Virus record (IMG/VR): IMGVR_UViG_3300029862_000001
Location: 53,276-117,275 of that record
Source of the DNA: a virus
Taxonomy: Duplodnaviria; Heunggongvirae; Uroviricota; Caudoviricetes
Direction: 5' to 3' (one strand)
DNA length: 64,000 bases
In this document: one piece after another, positions 1,943-64,000 of the stretch
How the letters are laid out: each line of letters opens with the position of its first letter
Numbering within the stretch: the first letter of the stretch is position 1
Position numbers and translations under genes: made by a program
Notes under the pieces: generated by a model
The model's input: the letters and a program-made list of their open reading frames with translations, nothing else
The model's database searches: none
Told to the model about the DNA's origin: nothing

Positions 1943-1998
1943 TAAAGAGTAGAAAACAATATGTTTATGTAATATTAGTTTTTTCATTTTTATTGAAA

Positions 1999-2028
1999 GG
2001 AGCGCCGGCCTGTGAAGGTATGCGCTCT
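1999..2028. terminator. GC-rich hairpin ggagcgc/gcgctct, T-rich on the + side
   Basis: Stem 1999-2005 / 2022-2028. On + it is followed by tttgtatttatat and could terminate the 1709..1942 gene. On - it lies ~17 nt downstream of the orphan IS right-end copy. Confidence 0.4.
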
Positions 2029-2044
2029 TTGTATTTATATAATG

Positions 2045-2165
2045 CTTGACATACTCCCATCGCTAAAGCAAACGGGATTCTTGGATACAAACGTACGGAA
2101 CCCCCGGTTTTACAATCGTTGGAATCACCCGCACTTTCCAACTCGGAAATGCCCTTCCGAGGTCG
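2045..2165 (-). mobile_element. Orphan IS200/IS605 right-end (omega-RNA scaffold-like) copy with no adjacent tnpB
   Basis: ~120 bp, ~80% identical and co-linear with 63176-63292, which is the 3' end of tnpB plus its right end. Similarity stops at exactly the same point in both copies (cttgacatac...; on the - strand the element ends ...GTATGTCAAG). No surrounding TnpB-like coding sequence. Confidence 0.55.
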
Positions 2166-2252
2166 CAAGACAGGGCAAATATAATGTTTAATTATCATCT
2201 GACACATAAATGGGATCAGTATTACCATTAAATAACATAAAACAATAATAAT

Positions 2253-2507: not shown

Positions 2508-3313
2508 TATTAAAAACGACAACCAACGAGTTTTGTTTCATTAACGTAAGTTTCTATGAAACAATAGCAGATCCTCGCTATTTCTTTGAACAAGATTATA
2601 AAGAGATGCCGGAATATGAGGAGGAATTAGATTTTGATTTTGATTCTTATTGCAATAAGTTTATTCCTTTTGTACAGGAATGGGCGAATAAGGTGGGCGA
2701 ACGCCTTTATGAATATGGTGTGAATAACATAAAGGTAATATCGGTCGGACATCCAAAAGATCGCAATTATGGTACTGATTGGATGGATGTAAGGGTAGAG
2801 TTTTGTGATGAATGGAGGCAAAAGATGTTATCTAACATTGGTAAGATTGTTAATGATGATAAATGCAAGAAGTATGCGGAGGCTAATTACCGGTCGGTAT
2901 CAGGATACATCTTTTTAGGACCTGAAGATTTAGAGGAATTTGAAAAGGAAATAATAGAAAGAAAGTCAGATTCGGGATATGATGTAACAATATTGTTAAA
3001 TATGTATCTAACTTTGGCTTTTGTAAAAGAATTTGGATTTAAAGCCGGAGAAGCATGGAGTGAAATAACAGAATATGCTTACGGATGTTTGTCGTATTCT
3101 GATTTTGCAACAACAGAGATGCTTATACCGGAAGGTTCGGAGCATTTATTCAAAGACATTTACACGGCAAAGGCCGACGAATTATATCATCATGTCCTGG
3201 ATAAATTCGGATGGGCGTGGCGTGATCCGAAATATAAGTCAGAAACAGAATTATGCGCGATGCTAAAGTGGGTAAAAGAAAAAGGCTTGACCATTGAAGA
3301 GTTAAGTATTTAA
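2504..3313 (+). CDS. hypothetical protein (269 aa)
   Basis: ATGA overlap with the upstream gene; long ORF with no competing frame. Confidence 0.6.
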   Translation: MILKTTTNEFCFINVSFYETIADPRYFFEQDYKEMPEYEEELDFDFDSYCNKFIPFVQEWANKVGERLYEYGVNNIKVISVGHPKDRNYGTDWMDVRVEFCDEWRQKMLSNIGKIVNDDKCKKYAEANYRSVSGYIFLGPEDLEEFEKEIIERKSDSGYDVTILLNMYLTLAFVKEFGFKAGEAWSEITEYAYGCLSYSDFATTEMLIPEGSEHLFKDIYTAKADELYHHVLDKFGWAWRDPKYKSETELCAMLKWVKEKGLTIEELSI

Positions 3314-9494: not shown

Positions 9495-9952
9495 CCTATA
9501 AAACAAAATTGCTTATGAAAACATTAGAACAACTTAAAGAATTAGCATCAAAATGTTTAGACGGTAGAGATTTTAACAGACTGGCTAAATTTATCCCATA
9601 TAACATGATAAAGGATTTCGATATGGAGCCGAACGAAGAATACAATAACGAAGAAAGGTGGAACAGTACTGTAGTTGAATTTACCAGGGAGAATGTTTTG
9701 AAACAGCTTGAAGAAGATGTAAGATTCGGTTTTGAAAAGGCATTAAATCAGAGAGGAATATCAGCCAGTTTAATGTTTGAATGTGTAATGATGTGGAACT
9801 ACATCCTGGAAGAAGGTCTTGAAGACTGGGATGAGGATGATTATGGATTTTACGGGCTACCTCTATTTAAAGCTACGGCTGTAAAATACGGATGGGATAA
9901 TCCTATAGGGGAAGACAGCGGGAGAGAAAGAAAATATGATTCACAGTATTAA
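9485..9952 (+). CDS. hypothetical acidic protein (155 aa; alternative start at 9515)
   Basis: ATG at 9485 overlaps the upstream stop; no HEPN Rx4-6H motif seen. Confidence 0.45.
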   Translation: MGLTYKTKLLMKTLEQLKELASKCLDGRDFNRLAKFIPYNMIKDFDMEPNEEYNNEERWNSTVVEFTRENVLKQLEEDVRFGFEKALNQRGISASLMFECVMMWNYILEEGLEDWDEDDYGFYGLPLFKATAVKYGWDNPIGEDSGRERKYDSQY

Positions 9953-60499: not shown

Positions 60500-62920
60500 C
60501 TAATTATCAGTGACGCCTTTAATGCGAAGCTGTATATTGGGAAGCACGGCATTAATCAAAGCCATTTTCTTATCCTCTTCGCTTTCTTTTTCATGCTGTC
60601 TATACATCATGCTGTAATCACTGTCATCACCATCCTTTTTCCCGTCTAACGTCAGTAAATGATTTATGATGTCCTTACCATACGTTTCAGCCCATGTACG
60701 GAATCTCTCTTCCTCGGACTGTCTCTCCTGGGACGGAGCTTCCGGGTTAGGAAGGGCGGCTGCCATTTCTACCTCTGGAAGTGTTACCGATGCTGCTATT
60801 TCCCCATCATCTCCGAATCCCATTTGACCATACGAAGATACGGAATTTTCTTCAATATCCAAACCAAGATTTTTAGCAACCTCCATAGCATAGTTATAAC
60901 GGTCATCGTTTCGTATCACGCTTTTATGAGGACGTCCTGCTCCTTGGTTCCAAGCTACTACAGCATCTTTAAGGTTATCGGCGTTCATGAAGTCCTGCCG
61001 GCTGTAGTTGTAATACCCTGGTCCTTCTTTTCCTTTTCTTGTGTATAAGAAATTAGAATATCCGGTTTTCCCTTCATATTCGTCAGCCAAGAACTCAAGT
61101 TGGTCTTTGAATGTGGGTGTAGAATGACCTTTCTTTTTGGCATGCTTGAATAGCTTATCCATGCGCTCATTATGCCATTGCTGTATGCCGTATGATGTTC
61201 TGTTGTCTCCGTATATGTCATCTTTAAGACCGGATTCAGCCATGAGATTACCTATGATAGCAAGCGCCTGTATCTTAGACATGCCTCTTTTATTAGTAAA
61301 ATATTCATATGCTTCACGCTGTTTACCAACCACGCCACCTTCTTTCTTGATATTGGTATTGTATCTCTTTCCATTCCACGTAAATTCCTTAAGACCTCTT
61401 TTCCTGGCTTCTTTAAAGGCTTCGCCTCTTGTAGTGGAAATCGGGTCTTGTAATTCAAGATCGTTTTTTATACCAAGAATGGCATTAATAATATTATCAT
61501 CCTTTTTATCATCATCATCTAATTTATCAACATTATTCGAAACGTAAGATTGGCTTATTAAATTTGATACGCTTTTTCTATTTTTATAAGTTCCTTCTTT
61601 ATCTGATGGAGCTTCAAAAGCATACACAAGTGGATACGAATAATCCGTATCTGGATCTTCTGACATAAATTCGCTTACTGCATGAATGGCTTTATTGTAT
61701 TTAGTATCCTTTATACTATACATCCCAGCATCTTGAACATGATCATAAAATCTGTCTATCATGTAATTGATATATCCACGCTTATCCCCCTTAAATCGCT
61801 CTTTATCTTTCTCAAACTCTTTGGGTGGATATCTTTTATCGGATTCTTGGAAAAGTCCCTTAAACCCTCCATAATCAGATACGGCATAGGGATTACCACC
61901 AGATTCTTCAATAATATTTCCAAGTACGGTTTCTATCTGGCGTTGATTGAAACCTTTATCATATAAAGCATCATAGATCATATTCATTCCATCTACGTCC
62001 ATAGTGCGGTGCGTACCCTTACCCACGCGCTTCATATTTTCATATTTGGATTTGAATAAATCCCAATCTATTTCCGGCTTAGAAGAATCCCCTCCTTGTT
62101 TTTTAGATCTTATCTTCATTTTTTTATCCAGATCATTCTTGGAATCAATGGCGGATTTCAACAAAACCTTGTTTGGATCATTCTCTTCATATGGATTCTT
62201 ATCTTCTACATAATCCAGAATATCAAACGGGTATCCTATTGTATCAAGAATCTTAGTAACAATCCCTACACCAAGAGGTTGATCGCTTCTATAAAAATCA
62301 TACTTATCTTTTACGACCATCCTACCTCTATCATCACGGTACATAGTGAAACTTGATAAGCCTGATAAATCATTTAAATCGCCGTAAGCGTCTGGTATAA
62401 AATTGTATTCGTTAAATACCTGATGTTCTCCAGTTCTGGCTTTTTTTAAGAGATCTATTCCCTCTTCCACCATTCCAAGTTTCCTACTTGTTACATCCCT
62501 TAACTCCTCCAAATCAGATACGTCCTTGCCTGCAACTTTTCCATCAATTATCTTATTATCTAAGGAATCAAGCTCCCTTTCATATTTTTTAGTCATTTTC
62601 TCCCACCCACCATTTATCCTGTCAGATATAATGGATTTGATATTGTCTGGTATTCTGACAATCCCATTTTCTTCTTTCAGATTATTTGGTTGGTTTAAGA
62701 ATCTAAACCAAAGATTCTGACTAAAATCATCTACATTGGCTTTCGGAACATCTTGACCAAAAAATTCCATTATTTTGGTTTTTAATCCTCTTTCATTAGC
62801 ATACACGTCAGGTGTTATATTAGATGCCAGATATTCTCTAAGTTTTACAAACGGACCAATTTTACTCCATAATGTTTTTGGTTGTTTGTCTCTTACATAA
62901 TTTTTAGTCTTCTTTGCCAT
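60500..62920 (-). CDS. virion-associated peptidoglycan hydrolase with two lytic transglycosylase (SLT-like) domains
   Basis: ATG at 62920 with RBS aagaaggaggaagaaaaaaATG. Motif 1 is ESGGNPYAVSDYGGFKGLFQ (ES...AxSxxGxxGLxQ); motif 2 is ESGLKDDIYGDNRTSYGIQQW. Confidence 0.6.
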   Translation of the reverse strand: MAKKTKNYVRDKQPKTLWSKIGPFVKLREYLASNITPDVYANERGLKTKIMEFFGQDVPKANVDDFSQNLWFRFLNQPNNLKEENGIVRIPDNIKSIISDRINGGWEKMTKKYERELDSLDNKIIDGKVAGKDVSDLEELRDVTSRKLGMVEEGIDLLKKARTGEHQVFNEYNFIPDAYGDLNDLSGLSSFTMYRDDRGRMVVKDKYDFYRSDQPLGVGIVTKILDTIGYPFDILDYVEDKNPYEENDPNKVLLKSAIDSKNDLDKKMKIRSKKQGGDSSKPEIDWDLFKSKYENMKRVGKGTHRTMDVDGMNMIYDALYDKGFNQRQIETVLGNIIEESGGNPYAVSDYGGFKGLFQESDKRYPPKEFEKDKERFKGDKRGYINYMIDRFYDHVQDAGMYSIKDTKYNKAIHAVSEFMSEDPDTDYSYPLVYAFEAPSDKEGTYKNRKSVSNLISQSYVSNNVDKLDDDDKKDDNIINAILGIKNDLELQDPISTTRGEAFKEARKRGLKEFTWNGKRYNTNIKKEGGVVGKQREAYEYFTNKRGMSKIQALAIIGNLMAESGLKDDIYGDNRTSYGIQQWHNERMDKLFKHAKKKGHSTPTFKDQLEFLADEYEGKTGYSNFLYTRKGKEGPGYYNYSRQDFMNADNLKDAVVAWNQGAGRPHKSVIRNDDRYNYAMEVAKNLGLDIEENSVSSYGQMGFGDDGEIAASVTLPEVEMAAALPNPEAPSQERQSEEERFRTWAETYGKDIINHLLTLDGKKDGDDSDYSMMYRQHEKESEEDKKMALINAVLPNIQLRIKGVTDN

Positions 62921-63098
62921 TTTTTTCTTCCTCCTTCTTAAATTTGTGGTAAGCATCACAAACCTTGTCAACCAACCATCCCATTAGATAGGCAGCGTGC
63001 TCATCTTCTCCGGCGTCAAAACTGTAGTTAATATTAAGATACTTACAATAAAGGGAAAGACCGTGCAGACATTCGTGTCCTATGGTTCTAACATCCAT
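62904..63098 (-). CDS. short ORF / possible C-terminal remnant of a gene abutting the IS right end
   Basis: The frame stays open from 63221 across the IS boundary (63176) to 62904; the part inside the IS is an artefact, and the first ATG in flank DNA is 63098. Confidence 0.25.
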   Translation of the reverse strand: MDVRTIGHECLHGLSLYCKYLNINYSFDAGEDEHAAYLMGWLVDKVCDAYHKFKKEEEKNGKED

Positions 63099-63175
63099 AT
63101 CAGATAGTGAATGAAATAAGAAACATATTTCTTTCCTGTGATTGGTTCGGTTTCCTACGAAAATAGTCCTGCCAC

Positions 63176-64000
63176 CTTGACATACTCCCATAGCTAAAGC
63201 AAATGGGATTCTTGGATACAAACGTATGGAACCCCGGTATTTCTATCGCTGGAATTACCCATACTCTCCAATTCGGAAATGCCCTTCCGAAGTATATTAC
63301 GGGCTGCAAGAACATCACGGTCGTTAATTGCGCCGCACGCCGGGCACACCCACGTGCGGTCGCGTAACGACAATCCTTTATTAATGCAGCCACATTCGCA
63401 AGTTTTGGAAGAAGGATACCATTTGTCAATCTTGTGTACTATCACTCCATACTTTGAAGCAACATACATTAGCTTATCAATAAAAGAAGAATGGCTAAGA
63501 TCAGAAACCTTCTTTCCCCACAAACGCTTCATTCCTTCAATGTTTAAATCTTCAATAAAAATATAATCATATTGTTTGCATAACTGGTGTGCTAATCCCC
63601 ATTGAAAATCCGATCGAAGATCTTTTATTTTACGATATGCTTGTTGGAGTTCAAACAGTCTCCTTCTTCTATTGTTGGATCCTTTCTTTGCATTAGAAAA
63701 CCGTTTGTTTAGTTTTCTAATCTTGTTTTGATATCGTTTGAAGAATAGTGGAGAATCGATTTTGCTACCATCGCTTTTAGTTAGATAAGTTTTCAGCCCA
63801 AAATCCAATCCGATAGATGCACCATCATGTGTCTTTCTATAAGAGTTTGAAGGATTATGGTCTGTAACTATAATCAAACTAAAACGTGAACAGGTTTCTC
63901 TAACTATTCTAATTTGTTTAACATTACCTTCATAAGGTCTACTGTATGAGAATCTAAATCGTTTCTTTCCTTTGTTAATTGTTAGAAAATTACCATTCAG
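63176..64000 (-). mobile_element. IS200/IS605-family element right end with tnpB (runs past the window edge)
   Basis: tnpB coding sequence plus ~18 bp beyond its stop; the terminus ...GTATGTCAAG (- strand) matches the TCAA-type right-end cleavage motif of this family; the boundary is defined by comparison with the orphan copy at 2045. Confidence 0.65.
63194..64000 (-). CDS. tnpB: TnpB (IS605 OrfB) RNA-guided nuclease, C-terminal ~270 aa (N-terminus outside the window)
   Basis: RuvC-I GASIGLDFGLKTY, RuvC-II YIFIEDLNIEGM, zinc finger CECG...CPACG, RuvC-III NDRDVLAARNI; the frame is open from 63877 up to position 64000 with no stop. Confidence 0.75.
   Translation of the reverse strand: MNGNFLTINKGKKRFRFSYSRPYEGNVKQIRIVRETCSRFSLIIVTDHNPSNSYRKTHDGASIGLDFGLKTYLTKSDGSKIDSPLFFKRYQNKIRKLNKRFSNAKKGSNNRRRRLFELQQAYRKIKDLRSDFQWGLAHQLCKQYDYIFIEDLNIEGMKRLWGKKVSDLSHSSFIDKLMYVASKYGVIVHKIDKWYPSSKTCECGCINKGLSLRDRTWVCPACGAINDRDVLAARNILRKGISELESMGNSSDRNTGVPYVCIQESHLL

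Follow-up and report, generated by a model that had tools for sequence, protein, structure and literature searches.

What purpose, if any, does the right-hand part of an IS200/IS605-family insertion sequence serve in a phage genome when it lacks the tnpB gene? The question is raised by one locus in a 64,000-nucleotide stretch of DNA from an epsilon crAss-like phage of the gut, hereafter the window. At this locus, on the minus strand between two small plus-strand genes, lies DNA akin to the end of a tnpB-bearing copy found 61 kb away. The original prediction held out three functional options: an omega-RNA acting in trans with the TnpB encoded at 63194, a decayed IS footprint, and a regulatory RNA derived from an omega-RNA. 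Action in trans is the best supported of the three: the two copies have a matching TTAT motif, the scaffold is intact, a promoter-like box precedes it and the population pattern is consistent with homing. The reading favoured here, which we regard as about evenly poised between right and wrong, is that the locus holds a TnpB-less, PATE-like IS605 derivative whose omega-RNA would act in trans with the TnpB of 63194 on the derivative's own vacant allele.

A 191-nt insertion and its two ends

The extent of the element is fixed by relatives that lack it. In csAssE-Sib and at least 81 IMG/VR contigs the empty site reads ...TATAATGC|ATAAAACAATAATAAT (TTAT|G) with nothing in between, and this insert, nearly invariant, occupies the site in 20 IMG/VR carrier contigs; the comparison of related phages that the original prediction had called for thus yields 20 occupied against at least 81 empty contigs. 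Judged against csAssE-Sib and 81 of these contigs, the empty site is scarless and the insertion has no target duplication. The stretch 2046–2236 is a non-autonomous derivative of an IS200/IS605-family element of the tnpB-only, IS1341 type, here termed the mini-element, and tblastn detects no TnpB coding sequence in its 191 nt. The supposed orphan right end does consist of IS200/IS605 right-end and scaffold DNA without tnpB, but the exact empty sites delimit a complete insertion bounded by a left-end tip and TTAT; the similarity, which was thought to end at 2165, does not stop there, and the insert continues to 2236, where it ends with that tip. The locus comprises the following features.

2046–2236, minus strand: TnpB-less mini-element, a complete 191-nt insertion relative to the empty site.
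2046–2160, minus strand: omega-RNA scaffold of 115 nt and five helices, made up of helix 1 (UCGGAAG/UUUCCGA), the closing helix 2, helices 3 and 4 with a GNRA loop, a 3′ hairpin and the 10-nt tail AGUAUGUCAA.
2046–2081, minus strand: right end, with the subterminal hairpin CCCGUUUGC-UUUA-GCGAUGGG and a 10-nt tail ending in TCAA, in IS608-like geometry.
2161–2236, minus strand: left-end-derived part, with the tip GTTATTTAATGG (GATTATTTAACC in full copies) and then 60 nt without a stable hairpin.
2176–2183, minus strand: promoter-like box TATATTTG, matching TAnnTTTG, 15 nt upstream of helix 1.
2237–2240, minus strand: TTAT, the target and transposon-adjacent motif (TAM), in the flank immediately 5′ of the left end.
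2026–2045, minus strand: putative guide template GCAUUAUAUAAAUACAAAGA, flanking DNA just beyond the right end, placed from the right-end boundary.
2000–2027, given without strand: backbone hairpin GAGCGC...GCGCUC, outside the element.

The mini-element therefore sits immediately 3′ of its TTAT motif and retains the left-end tip, the promoter-like box, the complete scaffold and the right end, while tnpB and the left-end hairpin are missing. The right end displays the arrangement typical of the IS200/IS605 family, with a subterminal hairpin and a cleavage tetranucleotide at a fixed 3′ distance. As DNA it reads CCCGTTTGC-TTTA-GCGATGGG, then AGTATGTCAA, and stops at ...GTCAA. Across more than 40 insertion sites the right-end consensus finishes in ...GGGAGTATGTCAA, TCAA being constant and the next base variable. 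The boundary originally drawn has accordingly to be moved by one base: the true end is ...GTATGTCAA, the following G belongs to the flank, and the guide (2045 down to 2026) begins one base before the position claimed, with GCAUUAUAUAAAUACAAAGA. Insertion also conforms to the family pattern, being 3′ of a specific tetranucleotide, scarless in the empty site and free of target-site duplication, and TTAT is kept in the empty site. The same motif stands 5′ of the left end at no fewer than 12 different insertion sites of the tnpB-only class, as well as at the window's own full copy. Spacing is IS608-like, with 10 nt from the right-end hairpin to TCAA and, in full copies, 19 nt from the left-end cleavage site to the hairpin.

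The picture at the left end is different. Whereas the left end of full-length copies folds as DNA at −11 kcal/mol (z −2.8), that of the mini-element attains −2.9 kcal/mol (z 0.13) and the hairpin is absent. When the left 76 nt are compared with the left ends of full copies, the best local alignment score is 22 against a shuffle mean of 23; local alignment recognizes only an 11-nt match to the promoter box, ATTATATTTGC, and the 12-nt tip, and the part recognizable as an IS200/IS605 left end is this tip of 12–17 nt only. An 87-aa open reading frame at 1965–2228 was considered as a gene and rejected: it is a frameshifted remnant of the TnpB C-terminus that reads through into the flank.

The omega-RNA scaffold and its TnpB partner

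The partner copy lies at the opposite side of the window.

63177–64000, minus strand: full-length IS copy, truncated here by the end of the window, with right end and scaffold at 63177–63290.
63194 to beyond 64000, minus strand: tnpB, stop codon 63194–63196, with the Pfam domains OrfB_IS605 and Cas12f1-like_TNB.
63157–63176, minus strand: putative guide template of the full copy, GGUGGCAGGACUAUUUUCGU, adjoining its right end.

Its identification as the 3′ end of a minus-strand tnpB plus an IS right end holds good, as shown by the stop codon and the OrfB_IS605 domain. The gene is open from residue 112 (of 379) to the stop, the visible part is apparently intact and the RuvC motifs GLDFG, IEDL and NDRD are present. 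In the relatives L213 and L214 a 379-aa TnpB occupies the site of the window's full copy, with the left end TTAT|GATTATTTAACC and no tnpA, and IMGVR_UViG_3300045988_119379 likewise has the 379-aa protein at that site; the TTAT motif is common to the mini-element and the window's full copy. Repeat search and MAFFT align 2045–2163 with 63176–63293 at 84–91% identity per block, with one 1-nt indel. The repeat first noticed against 63176–63292 is thus real and co-oriented, as MAFFT and the covariance model agree, but its identity was underestimated at ~80%: the scaffolds at 2046–2160 and 63177–63290 are about 88% identical (88.7%), and they fold alike and share the A.C mismatch of helix 4.

Derived from 44 relatives, with both window copies in its training alignment, a covariance model matches the window only at 63177–63290 (138 bits) and 2046–2160 (124.5 bits), both on the minus strand. 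The consensus structure of these 44 relatives contains 34 pairs, 14 of them with compensatory changes; 98% of cells are paired, against 32–56% in slid controls, and none of 500 shuffles attains the observed values. The mini-element preserves 33 of the 34 consensus pairs, and its private states relative to TnpB-linked scaffolds number two, both at unpaired positions. The right-end hairpin is helix 5 and covaries, a signal to be read with the caveat that this helix doubles as the DNA hairpin for TnpA. In L034 and L092 helix 4 is swapped for an unrelated UUCG-type hairpin. Helix 1 is invariant because it served as the search pattern, which misses copies without helix 1 and so biases any statement that the entire scaffold is retained in every mini. 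Structural support comes from relatives only: folding of the single scaffold sequence is no better than that of shuffles (z −0.76), and the fold of the whole 211-nt putative transcript is uninformative (z 0.0). The region shows structural attributes of an omega-RNA, namely a scaffold that spans the tnpB 3′ end and the right end and stops at the element boundary, a guide that would be provided by the adjacent flank, and a secondary structure whose conservation is backed by covariation. Related genomes with a full IS here, and no conserved scaffold structure, had been named as an outcome that would speak against such an RNA; no relative carries a full IS there, and the structure is conserved with covariation. 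The suggested Rfam search, by contrast, did not deliver a family: no omega-RNA or IS605 model matches the whole window at the gathering threshold, and matches at E ≤ 10 on 1900–2400 are at chance level only. This scaffold type is therefore absent from Rfam 15, membership of which is not defining for omega-RNAs.

The box upstream of helix 1 matches TAnnTTTG, which we take to be the Bacteroidetes −7 promoter box. A sigma-70-like match, GTGTCA-16-TATATT, runs from 2205 down to 2178 and overlaps TATATTTG, and ATTATATTTGC also precedes the tnpB start codon by ~25 nt in relatives with tnpA. TAnnTTTG is unenriched in the window (73 occurrences observed, 68 expected), and the promoter evidence is for this reason weak; promoter-like matches occur on both strands at the mini-element. 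The common carrier allele differs from the L240 variant in having the A.C mismatch and one more G in a run of 5–7 G that is prone to slippage; these differences could be early decay.

The IS605 lineage to which the mini-element belongs is abundant in epsilon crAss-like phages, with more than 119 viral contig matches. It is a lineage that has repeatedly produced guide-only derivatives: in three independent TnpB-less lineages (the mini-element, group B and group C) the upstream DNA joins ~3–12 nt from helix 1. The conserved 18-mer of the lineage has no real match in 185,579 species-representative prokaryote genomes. Among prokaryote contigs, the helix-1 18-mer has 24 matches in unrelated bacteria, but the remainder of the scaffold accompanies none of them, nor does a TnpB homologue; a host or bacterial source was therefore not found. 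A relaxed 17-mer junction search for a full-length progenitor added 10 matches, which were discarded as chance occurrences in unrelated contigs.

The vacant allele and the spread of the insert

In the window the guide sequence is preceded by TCAA, not TTAT, and is consequently not a self target; TTAT followed by the guide is absent from the window altogether. The search for TAM-adjacent matches, also advocated in the original prediction, was rewarded elsewhere: each of the 90 related loci retrieved has the combination once, in every case on the vacant allele, as a perfect match or with one mismatch. The predicted target there is TTAT-GCATTATAYAAATACAAAGA (also written TTAT-GCATTATACAAATACAAAGA). 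At guide position 9, in the TAM-proximal half, the window allele has T and most empty alleles have C, which makes one mismatch. An A/G variant at position 9 is not specific to carriers: although 0 of 82 empties had it, a looser anchor scan found A in eight empty alleles, in linkage with a variant of the right flank that the narrower pattern had excluded.

The hairpin described at 1999–2028 is genuine (2000–2027; RNA fold −14.5 kcal/mol, z −3.3), but it is conserved in all empty-site relatives and hence belongs to the phage backbone rather than the element. It fails a consensus terminator scan. It is likely to be the terminator of the plus-strand gene 1709–1942 and could also end the minus-strand omega-RNA transcript.

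Under the favoured reading of action in trans, the scaffold would be transcribed from the internal TATATTTG or GTGTCA-N16-TATATT promoter, and the transcript would cross the right end into the flank and pick up the guide GCAUUAUAUAAAUACAAAGA, with the backbone hairpin 18 nt downstream perhaps helping to set the RNA 3′ end. The TnpB of the full-length copy at 63194 would bind this RNA in trans, and IS copies of co-infecting phages may be a further source of TnpB. The complex would cut only DNA in which TTAT adjoins a guide match, that is, the vacant allele, be it carried by sibling phages or by a copy from which the insert has gone. Recombinational repair from an occupied genome would then copy the insert in, amounting to homing or retention, and failed repair would harm the competitor phage.

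The population pattern is consistent with homing. The polymorphism concerns one site, the insert is far less diverged than its surroundings (π 0.002 across the 20 carrier contigs, against 0.02–0.29 in the flanks of the same genomes) and several flank haplotypes are represented. Carriers are not monophyletic and are interspersed among empties; the occupied L212 has 800-nt flanks identical to those of five empties. Haplotypes recombinant across the insertion point account for 8 of 19 carriers and 1 of 122 empties, with a nominal p of 2e-7. The contigs cannot count as independent samples, and ascertainment differed between the scans. The insert is missing from ~80% of related genomes, and its site is a conserved linker with highly variable gene cassettes on either side. 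Ordinary mosaic exchange among phages, with no nuclease needed, could also give rise to this haplotype pattern. Among the matches listed, about a quarter of related empty-site contigs hold another copy of the IS family, mostly with tnpB, which supports a partner in trans. Full-length TnpB copies are not enriched in carriers (~20% as against 27% of empties, again for contigs among the matches listed), a comparison that does not discriminate.

The rival that fares best is an inert relic, a reading to which we accord a substantial but minority probability. After the insertion of a full IS here, internal deletion would have removed tnpB and the left-end hairpin, leaving a young, functionless passenger that spreads by homologous recombination of co-infecting phages in the conserved linker and by crossovers inside the 191 identical bases. 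The decayed footprint of the original prediction is partly true in this sense, the left-end hairpin having gone, and the confinement of the element to a single locus, the A.C mismatch and the variable G-run all agree with decay. Elsewhere, forms of this IS that arose by deletion in situ are common (L021, L097, L113, L031, L018); in one relative, L239, the scaffold is deleted, and in another, L058, the guide region is rearranged. Hypervariable cassettes, with π up to 0.29, surround the site as is typical of mosaic boundaries, and low diversity by itself shows only that the insert is young. It is harder to reconcile with a relic that nothing of the scaffold is missing up to a few bases from helix 1, likewise in two independent TnpB-less lineages, that just two changes are private to it, both unpaired, although it diverges by 11% from the closest scaffold linked to a TnpB, and that a promoter-like box lies exactly upstream. 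Recombinant haplotypes across the site are moreover ~50-fold commoner in carriers than in empties, and occupied and empty alleles are found on otherwise identical 800-nt backgrounds.

Much less probable is a mobilisable PATE, in which Y1 TnpA supplied in trans, by tnpA-carrying copies of related phages or by the host, would excise and re-insert the mini-element and so generate the presence/absence polymorphism. The precise, scarless empty sites resemble those of peel-and-paste excision, the right-end hairpin, TCAA end and left-end tip are intact, a Y1 TnpA of 132 aa is encoded in 10 related loci, and other minis (group C) retain a full left-end hairpin (−10.4 kcal/mol, z −3.4). The mini-element is indeed short, at 191 nt, and devoid of a protein gene, as PATEs are; but they have both terminal palindromes and dispersed copies, whereas here the left-end palindrome is absent and the locus is one. 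The lack of a stable left-end hairpin means that TnpA probably cannot move the mini-element, which fits its occurrence at a single locus: a 31-mer specific to its left part is found in 21 IMG/VR contigs, all at this locus, and at no other IMG/VR site. Independent re-insertion at one TTAT among thousands is very unlikely. No tnpA was found in the mini-element or in the 64-kb window, and the tnpA-carrying classes use TTAC, not TTAT.

A domesticated regulator, be it an antisense RNA or promoter/terminator module acting on genes 1709–1942 and 2253–2507 or a binding-only repression guide of the TldR type, is the least credible reading of all: the insert does lie 16 nt upstream of the start codon of gene 2253–2507, antisense to both neighbours, is nearly invariant in carriers and bears promoter-like matches on both strands, but its absence from ~80% of related genomes means that the phage does not need it, the catalytic RuvC motifs retained by the partner TnpB are not those of a dead repressor, the guide matches the vacant allele only and the gene content beside the insert shows no sign of alteration.

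Action in trans on the vacant allele can be taken one step further. The mini-element may be a guide-only homing element, a 191-nt hyperparasite that consists of an omega-RNA gene alone. It would rely on TnpB from unrelated full-length IS copies, whether of its own phage or of another crAss-like phage in the same infection, and would pass between phages as vacant alleles are cut under RNA guidance. We advance this proposal tentatively and consider it rather unlikely.

Comparison with known systems

To our knowledge, TnpB homing has been shown only as the restoration of an excised copy from the sister chromosome. Protein homing endonucleases damage competitors in T-even and jumbo phages. Phage co-infection brings together vacant and occupied alleles of different genomes, and an RNA-guided nuclease active at that time could drive super-Mendelian spread and could also damage competitor phages. 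Guide-only homing, if true, would thus be genuine allele-to-allele homing, and perhaps interference competition, in co-infection; if the mini-element is merely a relic, the locus illustrates ordinary IS decay. It offers a testable case, with a defined guide, a TTAT-flanked target in ~80% of siblings and a partner nuclease in the same genome, and natural AT/AC variants of the target exist, with changes at seed positions 1–2.

Bacteria are known to harbour elements that lack TnpB yet retain an omega-RNA; that these act in trans has mostly been an assumption. Guide-RNA-only IS elements are a known kind, of which we know of no report in phages. Meers et al. (2023) described PATEs that often encode omega-RNAs and would require TnpB in trans, and demonstrated TnpB-driven homing at donor joints (PMC10055086). 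Like the PATE-like elements of Geobacillus stearothermophilus (PMC10055086) and the haloarchaeal PATEs, the mini-element has no protein gene, IS605-type ends, a scarless TAM-adjacent insertion and a right-end omega-RNA scaffold, so that a TnpB encoded elsewhere must use the guide. Unlike them it has lost the left-end palindrome, occupies a single locus instead of being dispersed, resides in a lytic-type crAss-like phage genome and is polymorphic among sibling phages.

The TnpB–omega-RNA mechanism of IS608/ISDra2-type elements was reportedly set out by Karvelis and co-workers in 2021. With these elements the mini-element has in common a TCAA-type right-end cleavage site 10 nt beyond the subterminal hairpin, and the full copies of its lineage a left-end cleavage site 19 nt before the hairpin. 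In the lineage as in IS608/ISDra2, the 4-nt target equals the TAM, the omega-RNA and the 3′ end of tnpB overlap, and the guide derives from the right flank, so that the target is the donor joint. The target motifs are TTAC for IS608 and TTGAT for ISDra2, as against TTAT here; the scaffold of the mini-element matches no Rfam family, and both tnpA and tnpB are missing from it.

Closer relatives are the full-length IS copies of epsilon crAss-like phages, which a published account treats as transposase genes only; the tnpB-only copy in csAssE-Sib (OR575929.1) is annotated 'transposase, IS605 OrfB family' (PMC11054128). They belong to the same lineage, with scaffold DNA 76–88% identical, the same right end and a related left-end tip, and differ in having a 379-aa TnpB, a left-end hairpin and many different sites.

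A further parallel is provided by the free-standing homing endonuclease genes and mobile introns of T-even phages (intronless homing, marker exclusion). For the mini-element the proposed nuclease takes an RNA guide and is the product of a gene elsewhere in the genome, the mobile unit carries the guide only, and homing is what we infer; as in the T-even systems, there is a presence/absence polymorphism at one site, an insert far less diverged than its flanks, and a re-assortment of flanking markers.

Boundaries of the insertion and its partner copy

In csAssE-Sib (OR575929.1), a related epsilon crAss-like phage, only ...TTTGTATAATGC/ATAAAACAATAATAATATG lies between the two flanking genes, and the window harbours 191 additional bases precisely at the position of the slash. 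This insertion, hereafter the mini, reads on the - strand, together with its flanks, ...TTGTTTTAT/GTTATTTAATGG...GGGAGTATGTCAA/GCATTATATAAATACAAAG... The principal features are:

2000–2027: GAGCGC...GCGCTC hairpin, stable on folding
2046–2236, - strand: the mini, which retains the 115-nt scaffold in full, right end included (2046–2160)
2176–2183, - strand: TATATTTG box upstream of scaffold helix 1, matching TAnnTTTG
63177–64000, - strand: tnpB-bearing full copy of the insertion sequence (IS), cut by the window end

The original prediction described an orphan IS200/IS605 right end: right-end and scaffold DNA without tnpB is indeed present, as part of a complete insertion relative to the csAssE-Sib empty site and not as a bare end. 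Among the loci listed, the element end is constant (...GGGAGTATGTCAA) at more than 40 different insertion sites and the following base is variable, so that the boundary G, formerly assigned to the element, is flank and the first base of the guide. The hairpin placed after the right end is real, but it is kept in every insert-free relative and is therefore part of the phage backbone. Its most probable role is as the terminator of the + strand gene at 1709–1942; a - strand transcript could also be ended by it, incidentally, 18 nt past the mini.

The direct repeat linking the two sides of the window was confirmed: repeat search and alignment gave 84–91% identity per block between 2045–2163 and 63176–63293, with one 1-nt indel. 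The far copy is, as had been proposed, the 3′ portion of tnpB, here on the - strand. From the window edge the tnpB frame stays open until the stop codon at 63194–63196, and its product, with the C-terminus ...ARNILRKGISELESMGNSSDRNTGVPYVCIQESHLL, has Pfam matches to OrfB_IS605 and Cas12f1-like_TNB. In the same frame the mini reads ...RKGISELESAGDSNDCKTGG and then shifts frame; no TnpB coding was found upstream of this remnant. Two related viral loci, L213 and L214, encode a 379-aa TnpB at the insertion site of the full copy (63177); the left end there is flanked by TTAT, and tnpA is absent. The full copy in the window has a scaffold of the GUAUGGG class; L213 and L214 differ from it in both scaffold and TnpB C-terminus, which would indicate that IS copies have recombined or undergone gene conversion. 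The right end of the full copy is followed directly, on its downstream side, by a small - strand ORF (62904–63100) with a HECLH (HExxH-type) motif; as the mechanical call of this ORF begins inside the IS right end, the insertion may have changed its 5′ region.

Full copies of the main class have the left end TTAT/GATTATTTAACCAACAAAA-CCACC...GGTGG, with TTAT conserved at at least 12 independent insertion sites. Spacing in this lineage is IS608-like: 19 nt separate the left cleavage point from the left hairpin, and 10 nt the right hairpin from TCAA. The mini harbours an identical TTAT and a recognizable left-end tip, GTTATTTAATGG; the left-end hairpin is lost (DNA fold −2.9 kcal/mol, z 0.13, versus −11, z −2.8, in full copies), as is tnpB.

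Elsewhere in the window, 19–271 contains six direct repeats of ~44 nt (CCAACAAGATTAAGACTTACAGCGTTTTAAAACAGTATTC and variants) spaced by 44–51 nt, near the counterpart of the right end of csAssE-Sib's linear record; these could represent a packaging, replication or regulator-binding array.

The omega-RNA scaffold and its relatives

An alignment of 44 distinct scaffolds yields a consensus of five helices and 34 pairs, with compensatory changes at 14 of them. Pairing holds in 98% of cells, versus 32–56% with partners slid, and the observed values were reached by none of 500 column shuffles, with the caveats that helix 1 was the search pattern, hence unable to vary, and that, at the DNA level, helix 5 is also the hairpin expected to be bound by TnpA. 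The mini has 33 of the 34 pairs intact, the single A.C mismatch being common to the window's own full copy, and only two of its states, both unpaired, are unseen in TnpB-linked scaffolds. A covariance model from the alignment has exactly two matches in the window, the mini and the full copy; no Rfam family matched the scaffold. The earlier omega-RNA reading is partly supported: IS605 scaffold DNA without tnpB stands; its boundary, bare right end and hairpin membership do not. In two relatives (L034:363–480 and L092, - strand, about 3000–3107) helix 4, a GNRA hairpin, is swapped for a shorter CUUC-UUCG/UUCA-GAAG hairpin, and this replacement by an unrelated UUCG-type hairpin preserves the structure and supports the RNA model.

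TAnnTTTG is the consensus of the Bacteroidetes −7 promoter box. The TATATTTG box overlaps a sigma-70-like GTGTCA-N16-TATATT match, and in relatives that carry tnpA an identical ATTATATTTGC is located ~25 nt 5′ of the start codon of tnpB. Because TAnnTTTG is not enriched in the window, the box is a weak candidate for a putative promoter of the mini RNA.

An IMG/VR scan with the conserved scaffold 18-mer TCGGAAGGGCATTTCCGA recovered at least 119 loci on gut phage contigs of 30–160 kb, whereas 185,579 species-representative prokaryote genomes gave chance matches only; judged by exact matches of this 18-mer, the lineage appears to reside in phage genomes rather than host chromosomes. Full tnpB-only copies occupy many sites. 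At 10 of the loci listed the copies are autonomous and have a Y1 tnpA (132 aa) that is divergent; no tnpA was found within the 64-kb window. The tnpA-carrying copies sit 3′ of TTAC, the tnpB-only class and the mini 3′ of TTAT (TTAC left ends: L011, L024, L062, L064, L065, L071, L080, L084, L104, L117; main class TTAT: L003–L079). One scaffold with two target motifs would imply that the DNA guide at the left end and the TAM specificity of TnpB co-vary within one lineage.

In-situ internal deletions of the IS are present in L021, L097, L113, L031 and L018, and two more independent TnpB-less minis occupy other phage sites. In group C (L038, L045, L050, L081, L087, L090, L098, L099) a full left end, with its hairpin and TAACTTTG box kept, is joined to ...AAAAACT-TCGGAAGG; in group B (L014, L019, L026, L060) another left-end class is joined to AATATACT-TCGGAAGG. 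In all three mini lineages (the window's, B and C) the junction lies within ~3–12 nt of helix 1, a pattern biased by a search that detects helix-1-bearing copies only; it suggests that the functional RNA begins at helix 1.

Polymorphism at the insertion site

Among IMG/VR contigs, 20 carry the insert and 81 the canonical empty site. A looser anchor revealed extra empty alleles, in which target positions 1–2 are changed from GC to AT (n = 16) or to AC (n = 15) or the motif is CTAT (n = 2); in one further empty allele a 4-nt deletion (TATG) falls precisely on the junction of TAM and target. A full IS at the mini site, part of the outcome named as contrary to the original prediction, was looked for in these contigs and none was found; the mini-specific left part occurs at the mini locus alone in IMG/VR.

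Across carriers, pi is 0.002 for the element and 0.02–0.29 for the flanks; the element varies in the length of its G-run and at a single biallelic position in helix 3 (A-U or G.U). A single contig, L240, contains a variant that shows three differences and has a perfect helix 4. Carriers are interspersed among empties: the 800 nt of flank in L212 are shared without a single difference by five empties, and L077 and L207 are <1% from empties. The mean carrier-carrier flank distance is 17% over 800 nt, a value inflated by hypervariable left-flank stretches. For markers 9 nt left and 16 nt right of the insertion point, recombinants number 1 of 122 empties versus 8 of 19 carriers (nominal Fisher p = 2e-7), and the GC junction is found in all carriers versus 89 of 122 empties (p = 0.007); both tests treat as independent contigs that are not, from scans ascertained differently. 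A flank variant considered as carrier-specific was rejected as an ascertainment artefact, exposed by the looser anchor. Two loci show local changes: in L239 (~9500–9565) a deletion between a point within the upstream gene and position ~2170 of the element has removed hairpin, guide, right end and scaffold, and in L058 (563–690) the flank sequence changes 9–10 nt past the right end.

Set beside these recombinants and the intact scaffold pairs, the main rival explanation holds that the mini is an inert young relic, moved among haplotypes by ordinary mosaic recombination in a conserved linker between hypervariable cassettes; we consider this possible, if somewhat doubtful.

Target logic and comparison with known elements

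In the window, the bases immediately before the guide template GCATTATATAAATACAAAGA are TCAA instead of TTAT, and the occupied allele is therefore not a target. Each of the 90 related loci retrieved contains TTAT plus guide (with Y at position 9) exactly once, every time at the vacant allele; position 9 is T in the window allele and C in most vacant alleles. The mini is an IS605-family TnpB-less element with an intact omega-RNA gene, TTAT and a defective left end, present at one locus and polymorphic across haplotypes. Its RNA would be transcribed from its own putative promoter and loaded on TnpB supplied in trans, and the complex would cleave the vacant allele of the mini's site; recombination after cleavage would result in homing or retention of the mini and possibly in damage to competitor phages. 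That the omega-RNA of this PATE-like mini acts in trans via TnpB against the vacant allele is a proposition we hold to be evenly balanced; that the mini spreads from one crAss-like phage to another as a guide-only homing element seems unlikely.

The csAssE-Sib paper mentions two TnpB-family transposase genes only (PMC11054128), and no paper on TnpB-driven homing between phages was found in the literature collection searched. The TnpB mechanism has been demonstrated at donor joints by Meers et al. (PMC10055086), who also report that PATEs often encode omega-RNAs requiring TnpB in trans; the same mechanism is proposed for the mini, here by inference from sequence. The mini is a PATE-like guide-only IS605 derivative, of a kind already known, in an unusual host genome.
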